Below the pieces are notes generated by a model that saw only the letters and a list, made by a program, of their open reading frames with translations, did no database searches and was not told the origin of the DNA. A DNA stretch of 32,000 nucleotides from Candidatus Saccharimonadota bacterium (GTDB lineage: Bacteria > Patescibacteriota > Gracilibacteria > UBA4473): contig OZ245819.1 of assembly GCA_965228485.1 (NCBI GenBank), positions 810,001-842,000 of the forward strand, written 5' to 3'. Positions 8,143 to 27,562 of the stretch are shown here, in pieces; position 1 is the stretch's first letter; each line of letters begins with the position of its first letter. A program made the position numbers and the translations under genes.

Positions 8143-8746
8143 AATCTGTGGAATCAGAAACCAGGAAATGCTAGATGCCTGTGAAAATCTTCAGGTTGAC
8201 TTTATTGGTCTCAACTTTGTATCTACTTCTGAGCGAAGAATTTTAAATGACTTTATTCCTCAAACAAAACTTAAAAAAGTTGGGATCTTTCAAGATCAGG
8301 CTTTGCAAGAAATTAGTAAGTATTCACAGCAGTGGTCTCTAGATATTATTCAACTTCATGGGACAGAAACTCCAGAATTTCTTAAGCGATTAAAACTACT
8401 CAGTAATACCCCCATCTGGAAAGCATTCTCTATTGATAAGAATTTTGAAATCAACAAGTTGCAAGAGTATAGCAAAAACTGTGATTTGTTTTTATTTGAC
8501 GGGAAAACCCCAGGAAGTGGAACAAAAATATTAGACAACAAGGTTCTTTCTGACGCTATTTCTGAATCAAAAAAACTAGGCATCTTGGTTGGAATTGCCG
8601 GAGGAATTAATGATGCAAATATACACAAATTCAAAAAACAATTTCCCGAAGTCTATGTTTTAGACACCGCATCAGGCGTTGAAGAAAAGAATAATTTCAG
8701 CCACAAAAAACTTGAAAAACTTATCAAACAGTTTAGAAATGAATGA
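8132..8746 (+). CDS. trpF: phosphoribosylanthranilate isomerase
   Basis: MKIKICGI..., DFIGLNFV..S.R, IQLHG, LFDG...GSG, LDTASGVE. Overlaps the trpC stop by 11 nt. TGA stop. Confidence 0.9.
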   Translation: MKIKICGIRNQEMLDACENLQVDFIGLNFVSTSERRILNDFIPQTKLKKVGIFQDQALQEISKYSQQWSLDIIQLHGTETPEFLKRLKLLSNTPIWKAFSIDKNFEINKLQEYSKNCDLFLFDGKTPGSGTKILDNKVLSDAISESKKLGILVGIAGGINDANIHKFKKQFPEVYVLDTASGVEEKNNFSHKKLEKLIKQFRNE

Positions 8747-9368
8747 GAAAAAATATGTGTTTTGGGATTTTGATGGAGTTATTACTGACTCAACTACATT
8801 TGTTTTTAAATTTTGGAAACAAAGACTGGAAACAGCTGGATATGATTTCAAATTAGAAGATTATCAGGCCACCTTTGAAGCCAAGTTTCCATTCGACTAC
8901 CTCCGAGAAAAATATGGCAATCTAGGAGAAGATATTAAAGAAGAATACTCCACATATGAAAGTGAGAATTACGCCCTAAATGTTCCTCTTTTTAAAGATA
9001 TGAAACCGACTCTTATCACTATTGCTAATAATCGTGATTTTTTTGCGGTCTCTTCAAACCTGGCCAAAGTTTTAAAAGAAACCTTCGATAAACACCAATT
9101 AAAAGCTTACTTTTCTGACATTATTGGACGAGAATCAGACGGCTATAAAGATGAAAAAATTGATAAAATCATAAAACACTACAACATCGCAAAAAATGAT
9201 TGTGTTTTTATAGGAGACACTATTAGTGATATGAAACATGCCCAATCGGCTCAAATAGATCGAATTGCCGTCTCTTGGGGAGTGCACTCAAGAGAAAAAC
9301 TCGAAACAAGCCCTGCACAGATTATCTGTGATACCCCGGAAGAATTACGTAAACTATTCGTATCATGA
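8739..9368 (+). CDS. HAD-superfamily hydrolase (phosphoglycolate-phosphatase-like subfamily IA)
   Basis: DxDG nucleophile motif FWDFDGVITDS. C-terminal GDTISDMKHAQSA...AVSWG. Start taken at ATG 8739 (MNEKKYVFWDFDG), which overlaps the trpF stop by 8 nt. The track start 8679 lies inside trpF. Confidence 0.8.
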   Translation: MNEKKYVFWDFDGVITDSTTFVFKFWKQRLETAGYDFKLEDYQATFEAKFPFDYLREKYGNLGEDIKEEYSTYESENYALNVPLFKDMKPTLITIANNRDFFAVSSNLAKVLKETFDKHQLKAYFSDIIGRESDGYKDEKIDKIIKHYNIAKNDCVFIGDTISDMKHAQSAQIDRIAVSWGVHSREKLETSPAQIICDTPEELRKLFVS

Positions 9369-10123
9369 CCTTAAATACTTCAAATTTTGCTCTTATTACT
9401 GGCGCTTCTAGTGGCATTGGAAAAGCCGCTGCCAAACAGTATGCCGCTCTTGGAAAAAATCTCATTCTTGTAGCGAGAAGACAAGAGAGGCTTAAGACAC
9501 TCAAAAAAGAATTAGAAGGCAAAAACATCGAAGTAAAAATCTTTTCTGTAGATGTACAAAATTTAAACGCTATTGAGAAATTTTATGAAGATATTTCTGA
9601 TCTAGAAATTGATATTCTTGTAAACAATGCCGGACTTTCACGAGGGAAAGAGCCTTTTGACGAGTATGATTTTAATGACTGGGAAGAAATGATTGATACA
9701 AATATCAAAGGCTTTTTAAAAGTTGCACAACTGGCTATTCCTTTCCTTAAAAAAACCCGTGGACATATTGTAAACCTAAGCTCAACAGCCGGGCTAGAGG
9801 CCTATGAAGGTGGGAATGTCTATGGAGGAACCAAAAGCTTTGTTCAGATGATTTCAAAATCACTCAGAATCGATCTGCTTGGCACTGGAATACGAGTAAC
9901 AGACATTGCCCCAGGGGCCGTAAATACTGAATTTTCAACTATTCGCTTCCATGGAGATAAGCAAAAAGCTGATCAAGTTTATGAAGGTTTTCGGGAACTT
10001 ACCGCTGATGACATCGCAGATAATATAATCTATGCCACGACTCGTCCTCCGCACGTAAACATTGAACAAATCGTGGTTTACTCAACCGATCAAGCCAGCC
10101 CAAGAATTTTTAATAAGAGCTAA
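9365..10123 (+). CDS. short-chain dehydrogenase/reductase, YdfG-like (NADP-dependent 3-hydroxy acid / serine dehydrogenase family)
   Basis: TGASSGIGKA Rossmann motif, NNAG, catalytic S...YGGTKSF (YxxxK). Near-colinear with E. coli YdfG as recalled (RRQERL..L..EL, ILVNNAGL, DTN.KG, VTDI.PG...TEFS..RF.GD). ATGA overlap with the HAD gene stop. Confidence 0.85.
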   Translation: MTLNTSNFALITGASSGIGKAAAKQYAALGKNLILVARRQERLKTLKKELEGKNIEVKIFSVDVQNLNAIEKFYEDISDLEIDILVNNAGLSRGKEPFDEYDFNDWEEMIDTNIKGFLKVAQLAIPFLKKTRGHIVNLSSTAGLEAYEGGNVYGGTKSFVQMISKSLRIDLLGTGIRVTDIAPGAVNTEFSTIRFHGDKQKADQVYEGFRELTADDIADNIIYATTRPPHVNIEQIVVYSTDQASPRIFNKS

Positions 10124-18988: not shown

Positions 18989-19041
18989 GTTTTGAATTTA
19001 AAAAAATAGTCGCCTCTATTGTCGGTTTTTTTTTAAGAAAC

Positions 19042-19908
19042 TCAAGTCGAAGCCGTCGAGGCAAGATCTATCTTAACACCAATACTATCAAGGATTTTTA
19101 AAATCTCCTCTGGGTCTTCCGCTTTAGACAAATCTACCAATACTTGAACCGAAAGCCTTTGGGCCAAAAAAGCTATAACTTCGTAAATTTGCTCTTCAAG
19201 ATGTCCATCAAAAGATAACTCTAAAGAATCATCAAAACTCCAAGATTGATCTAAAAATTCTTTTTCTTGATCTGAAGATAGGCTAAAGGACAATCGTCCT
19301 TCAAGCGCTAAAGACTCCAAGCAAGAACCAAAAAGCTCATACTCAAATTCCAAGCTCTCTAAGGCGGAATCAATAACTTCTTCAACTATTTCATAAACTA
19401 CTGAATCACTTACTTTCACCACAAGCCTTACCTTTTCACGAACGACATCACTTAACTTCGAAGCAAAGTTTAAACCTTCTCTTGTTACAGCCTCAACTTC
19501 AATGTCTGAATTCTCAGGATGAGTTTCCACAATAGAAGCAATCTGACGTTCGGCCATAAAACGAGCTAAACCCTTTTTTCTATATTCTGGAGCAACAATA
19601 AAGAGTCCTAGATCTCCATCTTTAGCCTCTTGCTGCATCTGTCCGCTCATTGCCACTATTTTATATTCGGCGTTCCTAATAACCGTGATATTCTCAAGAC
19701 TCTCAAACCGCTGTCCTGCAGTACCTCCAAAGATTCTCATCTCTGGGTCATTTGGAATTTTATTTCCCCAATTATCGTGATAAAAATCGCTTAACTCGTA
19801 ATAATCTTCCTCAATAAATTGAATCTGGTGGACAGAATCAGCCTGATCAACGAAAAAATTTTCGCCACTAATTTCTACTGCTTCGAATCCATCATGAACT
19901 TCAACCAT
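19042..19908 (-). CDS. hypothetical protein with GNAT-like acetyltransferase core and acidic C-terminal half
   Basis: 288-aa ORF. LGLFIVAPEYRKKGLARFMAERQI resembles GNAT motif A (R/Q-x-x-G-x-G/A). The C-terminal half is highly acidic. It lies 53 nt upstream of efp on the same strand. Confidence 0.55.
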   Translation of the reverse strand: MVEVHDGFEAVEISGENFFVDQADSVHQIQFIEEDYYELSDFYHDNWGNKIPNDPEMRIFGGTAGQRFESLENITVIRNAEYKIVAMSGQMQQEAKDGDLGLFIVAPEYRKKGLARFMAERQIASIVETHPENSDIEVEAVTREGLNFASKLSDVVREKVRLVVKVSDSVVYEIVEEVIDSALESLEFEYELFGSCLESLALEGRLSFSLSSDQEKEFLDQSWSFDDSLELSFDGHLEEQIYEVIAFLAQRLSVQVLVDLSKAEDPEEILKILDSIGVKIDLASTAST

Positions 19909-19983
19909 CTCCCGATTATACCAAAAAAACCAAGCGGAGAAAAGGGATTGCCAATAACCTATTTTTTTTTATGCTTCCCCTTG

Positions 19984-23611: not shown

Positions 23612-23652
23612 TGTAGTTTTGGTTAAAAGGTTGGTTAAATAATTTTAAAAGT

Positions 23653-23702: not shown

Positions 23703-23771
23703 CTAAACCTCTTTTCGCCCTTTCCCGGAAGGACGTAAAGCCATACTGTTCTGAGATATTTTGTGGGTCAT
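23703..23771 (-). CDS. upstream ORF in the glyA leader (MTHKISQNSMALRPSGKGRKEV; 13-codon version from ATG 23744)
   Basis: The first ATG is 11 nt after the TATCTT -10 box. The C-terminal 13 codons (ATG GCT TTA CGT CCT TCC GGG AAA GGG CGA AAA GAG GTT TAG) parallel the serA-leader uORF codon for codon. Confidence 0.55.
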   Translation of the reverse strand: MTHKISQNSMALRPSGKGRKEV

Positions 23772-23814: not shown

Positions 23815-24885
23815 TTAAGCCGCCAAAGAAAGTAGTGGATTTTCTGGGTCTACTCCTTTCATATATTTTTCATGACGCCCCTTCCCAGTGATCTTCAACA
23901 GGCCTGCTAACCACCGCTGAATAAGCTCATTCCCGGCTCCCTTCCAAGTAACCATTAAGTGTGGAGATATTTTAGCATAAAGCTCTTTTCGCTTTTCTTT
24001 GTCTAAAACATTCGCTGGATCAGACTGAAAGAGTGTTAAAAGTGTTTTCCCCTCAGCGGTTAAATAAGTAGGAAAGGGTGGTTTTGAATCCCCATTTTCA
24101 ATATGTCTCCCCAAGTCTCTCAAATATTCCATTAGTAAATCCATTGCTGAATACTCTGAGTGAGTTTGCAGCCCTAGAAACTTCATTTGTGGATCAACAG
24201 CCGCTCCAACCGATTCTCGAGTCCAGTTAATAGCATGGTTTAACACAATCCAATCCGGATGCCCCTCCAAATCTTTTCTTTCGACGTCTCCCCAGCGTGC
24301 GTGTACGGCTGTATGGTGAGTATCGGCATCTCTTACCAAAAAGTGATCACGACTTTCTAACGGAACTAAATGGTCATGAACTCCAATATTTTTTACATCG
24401 TGAAGAGTTCTATCAATCCCATGCTGCGTCTTTAGGAGGATATGAAAAGCCAAACAAGCAAACAGTCCTGTTGTTATATCTCCTTTTTCAATTTCTTGTA
24501 CTAAATCCTTAAAAGCGGGAACAAATGGTAGCGCCTCTAAATTTGGAACCTCTAGATCTCCCCCCGTAAAAACCATAGCATCTAAGCCGTCTTTGAGAAC
24601 AGAATCAATATCACGAGAAAATCTAGATAAATGCTCTAAAACTTCAGGTTTTGATCTCTCCATCCCGGGAATATTTACTGGATGCAGATAAACTTGTATT
24701 GATGGATCTGCCCAATTTAAATACCTTGCCCAAGTTCTAAATGTTTCAAAATAAGCAGAATCGGGCATATTGTTCCACAAGCCTATGTGTAATTCTCTGA
24801 TTTCTCTTTTTGAGGCTAACTCTAGATCTTCAATTCCTCGAATATCTTCTAAAACTGGATCGCCTAAATGATTTACTATTCCCAT
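23815..24885 (-). CDS. divergent MetA/HTS-family homoserine O-acyltransferase-like protein
   Basis: Manual alignment to E. coli and B. subtilis MetA. IRELHIGLWNNMP aligns with IRP.K...LNLMP. AMVFTGGDLE aligns with GLI.TGAP. LFACLAF carries the catalytic Cys (E. coli FVCWA). HARW aligns with HSRY. THSEY aligns with GHPEY, keeping His and Glu. About 50 extra C-terminal residues. Confidence 0.7.
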   Translation of the reverse strand: MGIVNHLGDPVLEDIRGIEDLELASKREIRELHIGLWNNMPDSAYFETFRTWARYLNWADPSIQVYLHPVNIPGMERSKPEVLEHLSRFSRDIDSVLKDGLDAMVFTGGDLEVPNLEALPFVPAFKDLVQEIEKGDITTGLFACLAFHILLKTQHGIDRTLHDVKNIGVHDHLVPLESRDHFLVRDADTHHTAVHARWGDVERKDLEGHPDWIVLNHAINWTRESVGAAVDPQMKFLGLQTHSEYSAMDLLMEYLRDLGRHIENGDSKPPFPTYLTAEGKTLLTLFQSDPANVLDKEKRKELYAKISPHLMVTWKGAGNELIQRWLAGLLKITGKGRHEKYMKGVDPENPLLSLAA

Positions 24886-24935
24886 TTTTTCTTCTTTTAA
24901 GTGTTTTTAAAAAATAATCAAAACAAAAGTCAAAA

Positions 24936-25622
24936 CTAAGGACTTAGCAATGTTTCTTTATTTCTTCCAAGATCAAAGGCTACTTTTGAAATCTCTAGTA
25001 GTCGATCTTCGGTAAAAAAATGAGGCTGAAAAGCTTCAGCATCGATAATCCCAATAACCTCCCCCTCTTCATCAAAAATGGGGAGACAAAACTCGCTTTG
25101 AACCTGCACATCACAAGTGTAGTAAGGCCCTTCATATTGTTCAACACTTTGTACTACAACCGCCTTACCAGAAAGTCCTACAGTAGAATTATTTGACCCT
25201 TTAGCAAACTCCTTATTTAGAGGAAACTCTCCTCGACTAAATCGACCGTAATAAGCTTCTTTCAGCAAAATTGTCTCCCCTTCTAAATTCGTTGTTTTAC
25301 GGTAGATACCAAGCCAATCAACGCCTGTAAGTTCTTGTAGGTGGGTTACAATTCGATTAAGCCTATAAAGCCTTAGCGTATTATCGTGTTTGGACAGATC
25401 AGCCTCTTCTAAACCAAGTGTTTTTTCAAGGCAATAAGGCTCTTGTGCCTTCAAACCGCATCCTGCACCAGGAACAATCTCTGGGACAGAATAATGATAA
25501 AGTTGATTAATTTCTTCTTCAGAAAAATGCCCTACAGACTCCTGCAATGAGGTAGCAACAAACTTATTAAGGCTTTTTTTCACTGACAACTCTAAACCGA
25601 TAGCCGATAGATAATGATCCAT
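24936..25622 (-). CDS. GAF-domain protein of the free methionine-(R)-sulfoxide reductase (fRMsr/YebR) type, with N-terminal extension
   Basis: The C-terminal ~150 aa align by eye with E. coli YebR. VDWLGIY aligns with INWAGFY. YYTCDVQVQSEFCLPI aligns with HIACDAASNSEIVLPL. VIGIIDAEAF...FTEDR aligns with IIGVLDIDS...FTDED. About 70 extra N-terminal residues. Confidence 0.65.
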   Translation of the reverse strand: MDHYLSAIGLELSVKKSLNKFVATSLQESVGHFSEEEINQLYHYSVPEIVPGAGCGLKAQEPYCLEKTLGLEEADLSKHDNTLRLYRLNRIVTHLQELTGVDWLGIYRKTTNLEGETILLKEAYYGRFSRGEFPLNKEFAKGSNNSTVGLSGKAVVVQSVEQYEGPYYTCDVQVQSEFCLPIFDEEGEVIGIIDAEAFQPHFFTEDRLLEISKVAFDLGRNKETLLSP

Positions 25623-25628
25623 AATTTA

Positions 25629-26768
25629 TTAAGTTATTTGAGATAATATTTTTTGAGAAAACTCTCCCTGGAATAAATTCACCCCATCCCTTGGAGTAAT
25701 CGCTATCCCATTGTAAAAAATTCTTCCATTCCCAATTAATAAGGGAGAAAAGCTTTCATTAGTATCCACTGGATCTTGGGGAACCCGGCCTCCATTAACA
25801 TTAAAAATAGGAATGGTCTTTGGTTTATAGCCGGTCGCCTGAATAATTACATCCGCCGCATCTAGAACTTCTGAAATTTCTTCAACCTCACCGCCATAAC
25901 CCAAGAATCTACTGTCTTCATCTTCTCCCGATTCTATTTTCTCATATCGGTCTTTTGCGTCCCCCCTTACTCCCTCAAACCTATGCACTTTTCCAGCATC
26001 AACATCTTCTTTTTTGTGAGCATAACTTGCATCTTTTGCTGCCGCTTCACTTGAATAATACAATTTAAAGTCATTTCGATGACAAAGCGTAATAGGATCC
26101 AAAACTCCCGCAGCACGGATATTATCAATACAAGAGAAGGCACTATGAGCCCCTCCAATGACCACAATATTTTTGCCTTCGACTCGCTCCTGAATTTCTT
26201 CACCAGAAAGACGTAAAAAATCATCAGAAAATACACGTTTATGGTCATTTTCTCGCAAGTTTAAAGGTTCTTGCTCGGCGCCAATCGAAAGAATCACATT
26301 TTTAGACACTACTATAGGCTCTCCGTCTGAGTCATAGGATACAACCTCTCCATCTTTATTAATTCGAAGGGCGCTAGCCTGAGCATCAATGATTGAGCTA
26401 TTAGAATTCTGTGAAGACTTAAGAATCCCGGACAAAGCCCTCCCCACCTCAGCCTCAAACCGTGCCATCGTTTTCAAGCAAATGATATCACCCCCTGTTT
26501 TACGAATTTCAGTGAGAAGATTACTTTTCCCCTCTAACTGATCTAAAACTGCTGCAGGAACGGTTTCCAAAAAATCTGAAGCTGCAGAATTAGACCGAAT
26601 TGAGTAACTTAATTTTCCCGATCCAAGATTTCTTTCAGGGCCAATCAATGCCAATCCTTTCTCCAATAGGGCCTCATACGAGAATCCGCCTTGCGATAAA
26701 GCTTTTAAAGGAATTCCTATGCCCGATGGACCGTTGCCGATTATCTGTGTTTCAAGTCTATCTACCAT
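25629..26768 (-). CDS. two-dinucleotide-binding-domain flavoprotein (FMO / N-hydroxylating monooxygenase / YpdA-like)
   Basis: N-terminal GxGxxG (IIGNGPSGIG). Second nucleotide motif VVIGGAHSAFS. C-terminal ATGY motif (IIQATGYKP), typical of class B flavoprotein monooxygenases and related reductases. No CxxC pair. Confidence 0.65.
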   Translation of the reverse strand: MVDRLETQIIGNGPSGIGIPLKALSQGGFSYEALLEKGLALIGPERNLGSGKLSYSIRSNSAASDFLETVPAAVLDQLEGKSNLLTEIRKTGGDIICLKTMARFEAEVGRALSGILKSSQNSNSSIIDAQASALRINKDGEVVSYDSDGEPIVVSKNVILSIGAEQEPLNLRENDHKRVFSDDFLRLSGEEIQERVEGKNIVVIGGAHSAFSCIDNIRAAGVLDPITLCHRNDFKLYYSSEAAAKDASYAHKKEDVDAGKVHRFEGVRGDAKDRYEKIESGEDEDSRFLGYGGEVEEISEVLDAADVIIQATGYKPKTIPIFNVNGGRVPQDPVDTNESFSPLLIGNGRIFYNGIAITPRDGVNLFQGEFSQKILSQIT

Positions 26769-26781
26769 ATTTTTAAGTATT

Positions 26782-26807
26782 AAAAAACCCGCCGAAGTAG
26801 GCGGGTT
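26782..26807 (-). terminator. intrinsic terminator (segments 3:4) of the Met leader attenuator
   Basis: Minus strand: AACCCGCC (26807-26800), TACTTC loop, GGCGGGTT (26793-26786), TTTT. It ends 13 nt before ATG 26768. No upstream gene on this strand could use it. Confidence 0.75.
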
Positions 26808-26833
26808 GGTACTTAGTTTCTTTTAATTTCTCA

Positions 26834-26890
26834 CTATGCACTAATCCGACCACTTCTCTTCAGAGAAGTCATCATCATAGTCATAGCCAT
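26834..26890 (-). CDS. Met-rich leader peptide MAMTMMMTSLKRSGRISA
   Basis: ATG GCT ATG ACT ATG ATG ATG ACT TCT CTG AAG AGA AGT GGT CGG ATT AGT GCA TAG. Five AUG among the first seven codons. Codons 8-15 contain attenuator segments 1 and 2. Confidence 0.7.
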   Translation of the reverse strand: MAMTMMMTSLKRSGRISA

Positions 26891-26911
26891 GCTTAAATTT
26901 TGCACGGATTC

Positions 26912-26940
26912 AAAGTAATCTGAGTTTCCTTTTATGTCAA
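26912..26940 (-). promoter_or_regulatory. promoter of the Met leader
   Basis: Minus strand: TTGACA (26940-26935), 17-nt spacer, TACTTT (26917-26912), then 21 nt to the leader-peptide ATG. Confidence 0.5.
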
Positions 26941-26959
26941 ATTTATTAAAATAAAAACA

Positions 26960-27562
26960 ATGTCAAAGCGCGTTAGAACCCACACCAACCCACTCTCAAT
27001 TCTGAAAGAAATCCATTTTGAGGGATTTGGTAATGACAAACCTCTATTTGTAGATGTAGGCGCTTTCAAGGGAGAATTTATGGATGAACTATCTACAAAA
27101 TTTCCAGATCACAATTATATCTGTTTTGAACTCCGAATCCCTATAGCCAATGCCCTGAAAGAAAAATTCAAAGACCGAGATAACTTTGTAGTCTTCGATG
27201 GGGATGCGGGAAGAAACTTTCGAAATATCGTAGAACCCTGTATCGCACAAGGCGCTAAAATCCAAAACATTTTTGTAAACTTTCCAGACCCTTGGTTCAA
27301 AGATAAACACAAAAAGCGGAGATTCATCACCGTTAAGTTTTTGAACGAAGTCGCCAAATGGCTCCCCAAAGAAACAGCCTTTATTTTTCAAACAGATCAA
27401 AAATTTGTTTTTGATGAAACCCTCGAATATCTAAAAGAAACGCCCTATACCAATATTGAGTATTTTGAAGATTCCGCCTACGAAATCCCAACCGATTGGG
27501 AAAAAGTAAAATTAGCTCAAGGGGATCAAATTTGGAGAATGAAATTTTCTCAAAAAGCCTAA
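26960..27562 (+). CDS. trmB: tRNA (guanine46-N7)-methyltransferase
   Basis: Hallmark FPDPWFKDKHKKRR, plus the SAM-binding VDVGAFKGEF region. TAAAAT (26947-26952) ends 7 nt before the ATG. Confidence 0.88.
   Translation: MSKRVRTHTNPLSILKEIHFEGFGNDKPLFVDVGAFKGEFMDELSTKFPDHNYICFELRIPIANALKEKFKDRDNFVVFDGDAGRNFRNIVEPCIAQGAKIQNIFVNFPDPWFKDKHKKRRFITVKFLNEVAKWLPKETAFIFQTDQKFVFDETLEYLKETPYTNIEYFEDSAYEIPTDWEKVKLAQGDQIWRMKFSQKA

Follow-up and report, generated by a model that had tools for sequence, protein, structure and literature searches.

The leaders trpL, hisL, pheL, leuL, thrL and ilvL of Escherichia coli and Salmonella share one arrangement, in which a promoter is followed by a short open reading frame (ORF) carrying a cluster of cognate codons, by mutually exclusive 1:2, 2:3 and 3:4 pairings, and by an intrinsic terminator located just 5' of the first structural gene, with termination as the default outcome when the leader is untranslated. 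The same mechanism has arisen repeatedly in distant phyla with unrelated sequences, as illustrated by the actinobacterial Trp, Cys and branched-chain leaders (PMC1262725) and by the His leader of hisS/hisZ in Bacilli (PMC2965389). No methionine case is reported in either work; the first states explicitly that the methionine operons of Actinobacteria were found to have no conserved RNA element ahead of them, and the second discusses leader peptides for other amino acids only. Methionine is likewise omitted from the textbook specificities of leader-peptide attenuation, and it is thought to be read via S-adenosylmethionine (SAM) riboswitches, T-boxes or repressors. Here, we describe an element with the classical arrangement, located on the minus strand (26940-26782) of a 32-kb window of contig OZ245819.1 (the whole stretch of DNA analysed), which precedes a flavoprotein gene and whose regulatory codon is AUG. 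On comparative and thermodynamic grounds, all of them computational, this element is very probably a ribosome-mediated leader-peptide transcription attenuator.

Apart from its regulatory codon, the element differs from the classical attenuators in having no sequence homology to them, and it scores below every Rfam cut-off. No Rfam family reached threshold in the window at either gathering or relaxed settings; over 26779-26880 the Trp_leader model (RF00513) scored 27.3 bits (E=0.0019; cut-off 41), a weak resemblance at most, and Phe_leader scored 19.9 bits (cut-off 55). Methionine is neither modelled in Rfam as a leader specificity nor described in searchable papers: no methionine leader-peptide attenuator was found in the searchable full-text literature, most subscription journals lying outside the search. 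It is likely that no earlier report exists, in agreement with the earlier note on this DNA, which had stated that such leaders are not known to be an established class. Unlike the classical leaders, the Met leaders belong to a Patescibacteria (candidate phyla radiation, CPR) lineage without Shine-Dalgarno sites, they often occur in tandem or combined with a riboswitch, and the amino acid that they would sense also serves to initiate translation. SAM riboswitches (S-box/SAM-I and SAM-I/IV) and Met T-boxes exert the same transcription-termination control over methionine genes, but their sensor is a SAM aptamer or the binding of uncharged tRNA, whereas that of the Met leader would be the translating ribosome.

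The promoter-like site (26912-26940) consists of TTGACA (26940-26935), a 17-nt spacer and TACTTT (26917-26912), and transcription is predicted to start at about 26905, some 15 nt 5' of the leader ORF. This ORF (26834-26890) opens with the ATG at 26890, about 21 nt past the -10 hexamer, and comprises 18 codons plus a TAG stop (26836-26834). It reads ATG GCT ATG ACT ATG ATG ATG ACT TCT CTG AAG AGA AGT GGT CGG ATT AGT GCA TAG and encodes MAMTMMMTSLKRSGRISA. AUG occupies codons 1, 3, 5, 6 and 7, that is, five of the first seven (26870-26890), with a consecutive run at 26878-26870; both the ORF and the promoter-like site were found as the earlier note had quoted them. None of 2,000 dinucleotide shuffles of the gap reached five in-frame AUG codons in seven, and the leader is the sole site in the window, on either strand, with at least four. 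No Shine-Dalgarno site is present 5' of the leader ORF, which is normal for this window, since none of its 28 long genes has a Shine-Dalgarno-like core at -18 to -4, A/U-rich sequence being found there instead.

Three pairings can form in the predicted transcript. The core of segment 1 (26863-26887), ACUUCUC at 26869-26863, begins 0 nt past the last AUG and pairs fully with GAGAAGU (26858-26852) of segment 2 (26833-26858), with an energy of -8.2 kcal/mol. These pairs had been proposed as the leader hairpin and they do form, but they are only the tip of a far longer hairpin of 21 bp (26887-26863 with 26858-26833; -25.2 kcal/mol) that extends over almost the whole ORF and holds the AUG run itself within its 5' arm. 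The antiterminator 5' strand, GAAGUGGUCGG (26846-26856), overlaps GAGAAGU and can pair instead with segment 3, CCGCCUACUUC (26794-26804), which comprises most of the 5' arm of the terminator together with its loop; this 2:3 helix has the pairs originally named, nine Watson-Crick, one G.U and one mismatch (-10.8 kcal/mol). The intrinsic terminator (3:4; 26782-26807), AACCCGCC-UACUUC-GGCGGGUU-UUUU, was the top match of a pattern scan, with eight pairs, six of them G-C, a loop of 6 and a T-run. Its energy is -14.9 kcal/mol, and it ends 13 nt before the ATG at 26768 of the first gene. The region as a whole has a fold z-score of -4.9, and none of 200 shuffles was equally stable. The helix energies are presumably of the same order as those of the trp attenuator.

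According to the attenuation model, transcription would start about 15 nt 5' of the 18-codon ORF. When Met-tRNA(Met) is plentiful, the ribosome would pass the AUG cluster and reach the UAG, leaving segment 2 either covered or re-paired with segment 1; with segment 2 unavailable, the 3:4 terminator would form and RNA polymerase would stop at 26782. When Met-tRNA(Met) is scarce, the ribosome would stall with codons 5 to 7 in the A-site, and its footprint would melt the hairpin that starts right after the last AUG. The freed GAAGUGGUCGG could then pair with CCGCCUACUUC before the 3' arm of the terminator is made, allowing the polymerase to enter the operon. With no ribosome on the leader, the 21-bp hairpin would lock segment 2 and termination would be the default. 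The genes placed under this control would supply methionine, through a free methionine-(R)-sulfoxide reductase (fRMsr)-like GAF protein that would convert free Met sulfoxide into Met, its flavoprotein partner, and a MetA-like homoserine acyltransferase.

The behaviour of the switch was modelled as the ensemble probability of the terminator while each codon in turn was masked by a ribosome footprint, which reached from -15 to +10 or +13 nt of the A-site. For the window element, this probability was 0.96 without a ribosome, fell to 0.45, 0.21 and 0.19 with the ribosome at codons 5, 6 and 7, respectively, and was again 0.96 from codon 9 to the stop. The dip was thus confined to A-site positions on codons 5-7(8). 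Folding without a ribosome likewise left segment 2 in the leader hairpin and formed the terminator. In a co-transcriptional snapshot with the ribosome on codon 7 and segment 4 still unmade, the 2:3 structure was the minimum-energy fold (-19.3 kcal/mol with inner helices); it was also the minimum-energy fold with the ribosome on codon 6, so that the 2:3 helix is not energetically negligible. Every prediction of the trpL/hisL-type model that could be tested at the sequence level held.

The same arrangement was found in other genomes. Seventeen distinct units, each composed of a short ORF with a Met run, a hairpin and a terminator, were identified in 12 Patescibacteria genomes (Ca. Altimarinota and Peribacteraceae), all of them 5' of one module that encodes an N-hydroxylase-like flavoprotein and a long fRMsr-like GAF protein, with the MetA-like gene as part of the module in two genomes. 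All 12 genomes bearing the flavoprotein-GAF module carry a Met-run short ORF and a terminator in the upstream gap, with flavoprotein identities down to 22-31%, and no relative was found that keeps the hairpins and lacks the ORF or its AUG run. A word-indexed protein search with the flavoprotein, which is rare there, gave two relatives only, and a first metagenome scan with flavoprotein peptide patterns gave none; the further loci were reached by exhaustive flavoprotein search and, above all, via the conserved GAF partner. Distant flavoprotein relatives in Proteobacteria (L005/L006) lie in sugar-modification clusters without leaders and were set aside as uninformative here.

Several of these loci carry more than one unit. 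In L001, whose flavoprotein is 97% identical to that of the window, a leader identical to the window's precedes an extra methyltransferase gene, and a second leader, MFSLRELMMYMMTEMSVSVVAVNLRC, precedes the flavoprotein gene. Two tandem units, MKFVSAQSMQMMMTLLRRSS and MAMRIMMTTSKWRMGYM, are present in L002 (60% flavoprotein identity), and two units also lie upstream of the flavoprotein-GAF pair in L007, in L008 and in L051, a Peribacteraceae metagenome-assembled genome (MAG) with a GC content of 0.54. L004 (41% identity) has a cut-off upstream terminator followed by MYLQKMMMAMMRTEMKVSVVAVSLY. In L022, MAMAMMMLLQKGSRISV lies directly before the MetA-like gene, and a leader of type B precedes the genes for a flavoprotein of 25% identity and for a short GAF protein. 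One unit was found upstream of the pair in L009, and the leaders MEMMMNMMMPVFRLCVCCD, MNFNTTTISNQTSMMMDMMMLARRGLCIV and MFKKALNNMSAMMMQTTQREVSS occupy this place in L011, L053 and L054, respectively. A TTGAC(A/G/C/T)-16/17-TAnnnT motif was recognised by eye at the equivalent place 5' of the leaders of L002, L007, L008, L009, L011, L022, L051, L053 and L054.

Each of the 17 units has between three and six AUG codons in seven, and for most gaps the observed cluster was reached by none of 2,000 shuffles; in approximately 105 kb, on both strands, only one other site had at least four AUG in seven codons, and it lies inside a coding sequence. In all 17 units the AUGs share one frame, the ORF opens with ATG and it closes before the terminator. 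The hairpin begins 0-4 nt past the last clustered AUG in every case (17/17), and thus falls inside the footprint that a stalled ribosome would have. Terminators of -10 to -15 kcal/mol are present in 15 of the 17 units. Terminator stems were compared by per-sequence folding; in MAFFT alignments the 3' arms of different homologs are displaced by one column, so that column-wise covariation was unusable for them.

In the switching model, nine other units (L022_A, L002_A1, L007_A1, L004_B, L008_B, L009_B, L022_B, L054 and L051_1) behaved like the window element. L022_A, L002_A1, L007_A1 and L054 showed a codon-aligned dip as in the window, and in L004_B, L008_B, L009_B and L022_B the terminator probability fell from >0.9 to ∼0 with the A-site in the second half of the Met cluster.

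Covariation was assessed within subtypes. The consensus fold of the type-B leaders is the antiterminator, with 31 pairs, 95.5% of cells paired and 4 compensatory pairs; none of 500 shuffles matched it on four of five measures, 11 of 500 did so on the fifth (pairs changed on both sides), and slid controls reached at most 54%. The 19-nt core of this subtype, GUUUCGGUGGUCGCGGUGA, is identical in five genomes, wobble positions included, and the flavoproteins of these genomes are ∼25-97% identical to that of the window, which argues for constraint on the RNA. This invariant stretch base-pairs with the terminator arm. A metagenome scan with the core gave 38 exact matches, 37 of which were rejected as chance occurrences in GC-rich coding sequence; only L022 was real. 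For its part, the window leader (type A) has homologs in L022 (MAMAMMMLLQKGSRISV) and L008 (MQKFEMSYIMMMPLTEGSRISI), and GUCGGAUUAGU of segment 2 is invariant in the three. Their 2:3 helix has 89.7% of cells paired, two compensatory pairs and slid controls of at most 52%. In L022, 10 of 11 positions remain paired through two G-C<->A-U double changes plus three single changes to G.U or A-U, so that the complementarity proposed for the window is kept in this homolog; in L008 the pairing is weaker.

Some further features of these loci were recorded. Thr codons (ACN) very often follow or interleave with the Met run in the 17 units (MAMTMMMT, IMMTT, MMMT, MMRTEM, MMSMMT, MMMQTT), examples being codons 4 and 8 of the window leader, L002 5489-5542 and L054 2456-2527; they may simply provide the 'AC' with which the first hairpin begins, or may relate to the homoserine branch point shared by Thr and Met. 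A comparison of window 23815-26959 with L001 5031-8031 revealed whole-gene indels inside the regulated unit of two loci with 97%-identical flavoproteins: in L001, the first leader and the flavoprotein gene are separated by a HemK/PrmC-like methyltransferase gene and a second leader whose terminator has decayed, and the MetA-like gene is missing; the window shows the reverse, with the MetA-like gene present and neither methyltransferase nor second leader. A frameshift within A-rich sequence divides the flavoprotein gene of L002 (5618-6756) into ORFs of 127 and 251 amino acids; as the contig coverage is only 6.7x, an error of assembly is more probable here than a pseudogene. In L007 (4451-8806), a type II CRISPR-Cas system lies just 3' of the GAF gene, with a tRNA gene between them; it encodes a 1,038-amino-acid HNH/RuvC Cas9-like protein, Cas2 and a Cas1 divided into two parts.

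The first gene of the regulated unit (25629-26768, minus strand) encodes a 379-amino-acid FAD/NAD(P)H flavoprotein that matches Pfam Pyr_redox_2. The top Foldseek matches of its AlphaFold2 model (pLDDT 88.5) were the amino-acid N-hydroxylating monooxygenases SidA, PvdA, EtcB, DfoA and KtzI, with TM values of ∼0.6, and its relatives gave weak matches to Lys_Orn_oxgnase and Pyr_redox_3. Judged from the structural model, it is predicted to have a class-B monooxygenase fold of the amino-acid N-hydroxylase-like type. A role as a thioredoxin-reductase-like partner was considered and rejected, as the protein has no CxxC and its fold and Pfam signals are those of class-B monooxygenases; the former view of it as a disulfide reductase was accordingly abandoned.

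The second gene (24936-25622, minus strand) encodes a 228-amino-acid GAF protein, a long form whose sequence predicts an fRMsr-like enzyme. Its four significant sequence matches in the PDB (E≤0.012) are all fRMsr (1f5m, 3ksf, 3ksg and 3mmh), and its family has more than 1,000 members, some of them named 'L-methionine (R)-S-oxide reductase' in their source records. Residues W103, Y107, C170, E177, D194 and E196 are invariant in four orthologs, and alignment with fRMsr matches the pocket Trp/Tyr (VDWLGIY) and the catalytic Cys (TCD) as well as the Glu and Asp residues. The window protein has the GAF fold, the pocket Trp/Tyr and the catalytic Cys in an xCD motif in common with the enzymes of yeast (YKL069W, 1f5m), Staphylococcus aureus (3ksf) and Neisseria meningitidis (3mmh), but it is ∼65 residues longer at the N-terminus and lacks both resolving cysteines of canonical fRMsr, C55 and C179 being invariant instead. 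The long GAF protein also differs from these enzymes in being paired with the N-hydroxylase-like flavoprotein in 11 of 12 loci (all but L052).

The third gene (23815-24885, minus strand), 50 nt downstream and probably co-transcribed with the flavoprotein-GAF pair, encodes a MetA-like protein of 356 amino acids (Pfam HTS, 2.5e-35). NCBIfam MetA models match it below their cut-off, and its Cys/His/Glu triad aligns with that of E. coli MetA (7cbe). It had been counted as part of the operon, and it is the third gene in the window, but across genomes it is an accessory and variably placed member of the module: it is absent from L001, and in L022 a homolog lies 5' of the flavoprotein gene, directly behind its own type-A Met leader. 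Outside the unit, trmB lies upstream in divergent orientation, and SHMT/glyA follows after a 200-nt gap past the MetA-like gene.

The genomic context of orthologous operons also points to methionine, in agreement with the methionine-related operon that had been proposed. In L053 the flavoprotein-GAF pair adjoins msrA, and in related lineages the orthologous GAF and flavoprotein genes are under SAM riboswitches. In L052 (701-5222), genes for MTHFR, a split MetE (Meth_synt_1 plus Meth_synt_2), a long GAF protein and a short GAF protein of canonical size follow an S-box-like element that scores just below the cut-off of 44.4 (40.1 bits, E=6e-8), and no Met leader was found in this operon. In L054 (2313-2590), the Met leader MFKKALNNMSAMMMQTTQREVSS with its terminator comes directly after a SAM-I/IV riboswitch, whose 43.3 bits exceed the cut-off of 41.1, and before the flavoprotein-GAF pair, which suggests a two-input design that reads SAM and the charging of Met-tRNA separately. 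Directly 3' of the GAF gene, L051 (4733-5428) and L054 (4721-5404), which belong to lineages distant from one another, encode a free-standing B3_4-domain protein (a domain family of the PheRS beta subunit), to which no NCBIfam family was assigned.

Since genes of Met and SAM metabolism are usually under riboswitch control, as are some operons orthologous to this one, and since the AUG run lies within a long, stable hairpin, a translation-independent RNA switch was also considered, in which the AUGAUGAUG tract would be a structural or a ligand- or protein-binding element and the choice of fold would be set by SAM or another metabolite, or by an RNA-binding protein. Such a switch would not account for AUGs that keep a single frame within a closed ORF in 17 of 17 units, nor for a run whose pairing partner varies by subtype while the identity of the codon stays constant. 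No Rfam riboswitch family matched the window, and neither a SAM aptamer nor a T-box was matched in 26600-27100 even at E≤10, with a search that detects the SAM aptamers of L054 and L052. In L054, moreover, the leader is present in addition to the SAM-I/IV aptamer and does not replace one. This explanation is therefore considered improbable.

The short ORFs might instead encode functional Met-rich micropeptides (for instance a sacrificial antioxidant, a substrate or partner of the reductase module, or the precursor of a ribosomally synthesized and post-translationally modified peptide, RiPP), the hairpin being a leaky terminator that sets the peptide:enzyme ratio. RiPP operons do have short precursor genes with leaky terminators after them, the ORFs studied here are conserved in position, and their neighbours are predicted redox enzymes acting on methionine sulfoxide. 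Yet the peptides differ widely between units, as exemplified by MAMTMMMTSLKRSGRISA, MHNLMMMFMQMTEMKVSVVAVNIRR, MEMMMNMMMPVFRLCVCCD and MIFPGKLAGTMMSMMTPLRGGDCC, and those of different subtypes have the AUG cluster and nothing else in common; if the peptides were products, it would be difficult to account for tandem copies that encode different ones. The invariant stretch of subtype B is kept at synonymous positions and pairs with the terminator arm, which indicates selection at the RNA level. In addition, fRMsr enzymes act on free Met sulfoxide and not on peptides, and no RiPP maturation enzymes are encoded nearby. We therefore consider a micropeptide function very unlikely.

An attenuator may also respond to signals other than an amino acid, and the architecture observed here is the same as that of drug-sensing leaders (PMC4191407 and PMC4335068). 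The element could in this case sense general translation stress or a ribosome-targeting compound, as ermC and bmrB do, or depend on nascent-peptide arrest, with the Met run incidental or part of an arrest motif; the few units without a Met-aligned switch in the model would fit this explanation. However, the AUG cluster is the only feature conserved in all the peptides, what lies downstream points to methionine metabolism and not to drug resistance, and the element shares its targets with SAM riboswitches, so that we attach little probability to it. Finally, although AT-rich intergenic DNA commonly contains short ORFs and hairpins, a chance ORF beside an unrelated ordinary terminator has practically no standing as an explanation and was ruled out by the comparative data, given that 0 of 2,000 shuffles reach the AUG cluster, that the fold z-score is -4.9, and that the arrangement is found in 12 genomes.

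Methionine-dependent attenuation is thus the reading that we favour, and the following observations weigh against it. Methionine starvation should also lower fMet-tRNA, so that initiation on the leader could fail; failed initiation on the window leader would then terminate transcription at the very time when the operon ought to be read. Codons 2 to 7 are buried in the leader hairpin, which could hinder translation if it folded first. With the full terminator present and the ribosome on codon 7, the terminator state was slightly favoured (-20.6 versus ∼-19.3 kcal/mol); as the two states lie within ∼1.3 kcal/mol, the outcome would be a kinetic decision. A Met-aligned switch was absent from the equilibrium model for L008_A, L011_C and L053, and four units (L002_A2, L007_A2, L001_B and L051_2) were antiterminated by default. 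L001_B has a decayed terminator, and the other three are each the second unit of a tandem pair; one could speculate that such default-antiterminated second units compensate for initiation failure. The covariation rests on three to five sequences per subtype, and with three sequences the shuffle control for type A was not significant (113/500). A sigma-70 scan does not list the window promoter, because its -10 hexamer, TACTTT, matches TATAAT at three of six positions. As to the regulated genes, the flavoprotein is tied to methionine by gene context alone, and the HemK/PrmC-like SAM-dependent methyltransferase gene that follows the identical leader in L001 would be an odd gene to induce at low Met.

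The closest genome to the window is a 'Candidatus Altimarinota' MAG of the Patescibacteria group with a 1.33-Mb chromosome. This label, of a phylum with which the reading of UGA as Gly is associated, raised the possibility of such a code, which was rejected as unsupported: no window gene has an internal in-frame TGA, and TAA and TAG dominate as stops. The two in-gene TGAs, in 8664-9374 (plus strand) and 19033-19968 (minus strand), lie two to three codons before TAA or TAG, and TGA-ended leaders stop where their TAA-ended homologs stop. The absence of internal TGA makes the standard code the most economical reading; under both codes the stop of the window leader is TAG.

A second, different leader was observed 5' of glyA/SHMT (window 23703-23771, minus strand, with a terminator-like stem near 23650). 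It contains a 22-codon ORF, MTH...RPSGKGRKEV-stop, which is in frame in five of five genomes, the homologs lying at L001 7889-7957, L008 5721-5789, L009 5719-5787 and L022 1433-1501. Its C-terminal decapeptide is invariant despite synonymous codon changes, which argues for selection on the peptide. The terminator stem differs between genomes: of the 16 pairs in the consensus, 7, most of which belong to this stem, have both partners substituted in one genome or more. This leader had no match in Rfam and is a candidate for an arrest-peptide-type attenuator or a small protein.

Ribosome-mediated attenuation as such is already known; what would be new here is the specificity for Met, the CPR host, and the frequent occurrence of the units in tandem or, once, combined with a SAM riboswitch. 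Taken together, it seems reasonably likely that Met-specific attenuation constitutes an unrecognised class, widespread in Patescibacteria of the Gracilibacteria/Peribacteria type, often in tandem and in one case (L054) placed behind a SAM-I/IV riboswitch, an arrangement in which the charging of Met-tRNA and SAM would each have a sensor of their own. This class would control an uncharacterised Met-salvage module formed by the flavoprotein and the long GAF protein without resolving Cys, and default-antiterminated units may solve the initiation problem. To our knowledge, few regulatory RNAs have been described in the CPR, and an incidental literature search for them gave nothing relevant. CPR bacteria have tiny genomes and are presumed to depend on hosts for amino acids. 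The Met leader flags the flavoprotein and long-GAF pair as methionine-related, and the tandem of SAM riboswitch and Met leader would be a natural two-input design in which SAM and Met are kept separate. If true, ribosome stalling can report the charging of Met-tRNA as well, which raises the question of how a sensor copes when the amino acid sensed also initiates its own translation.

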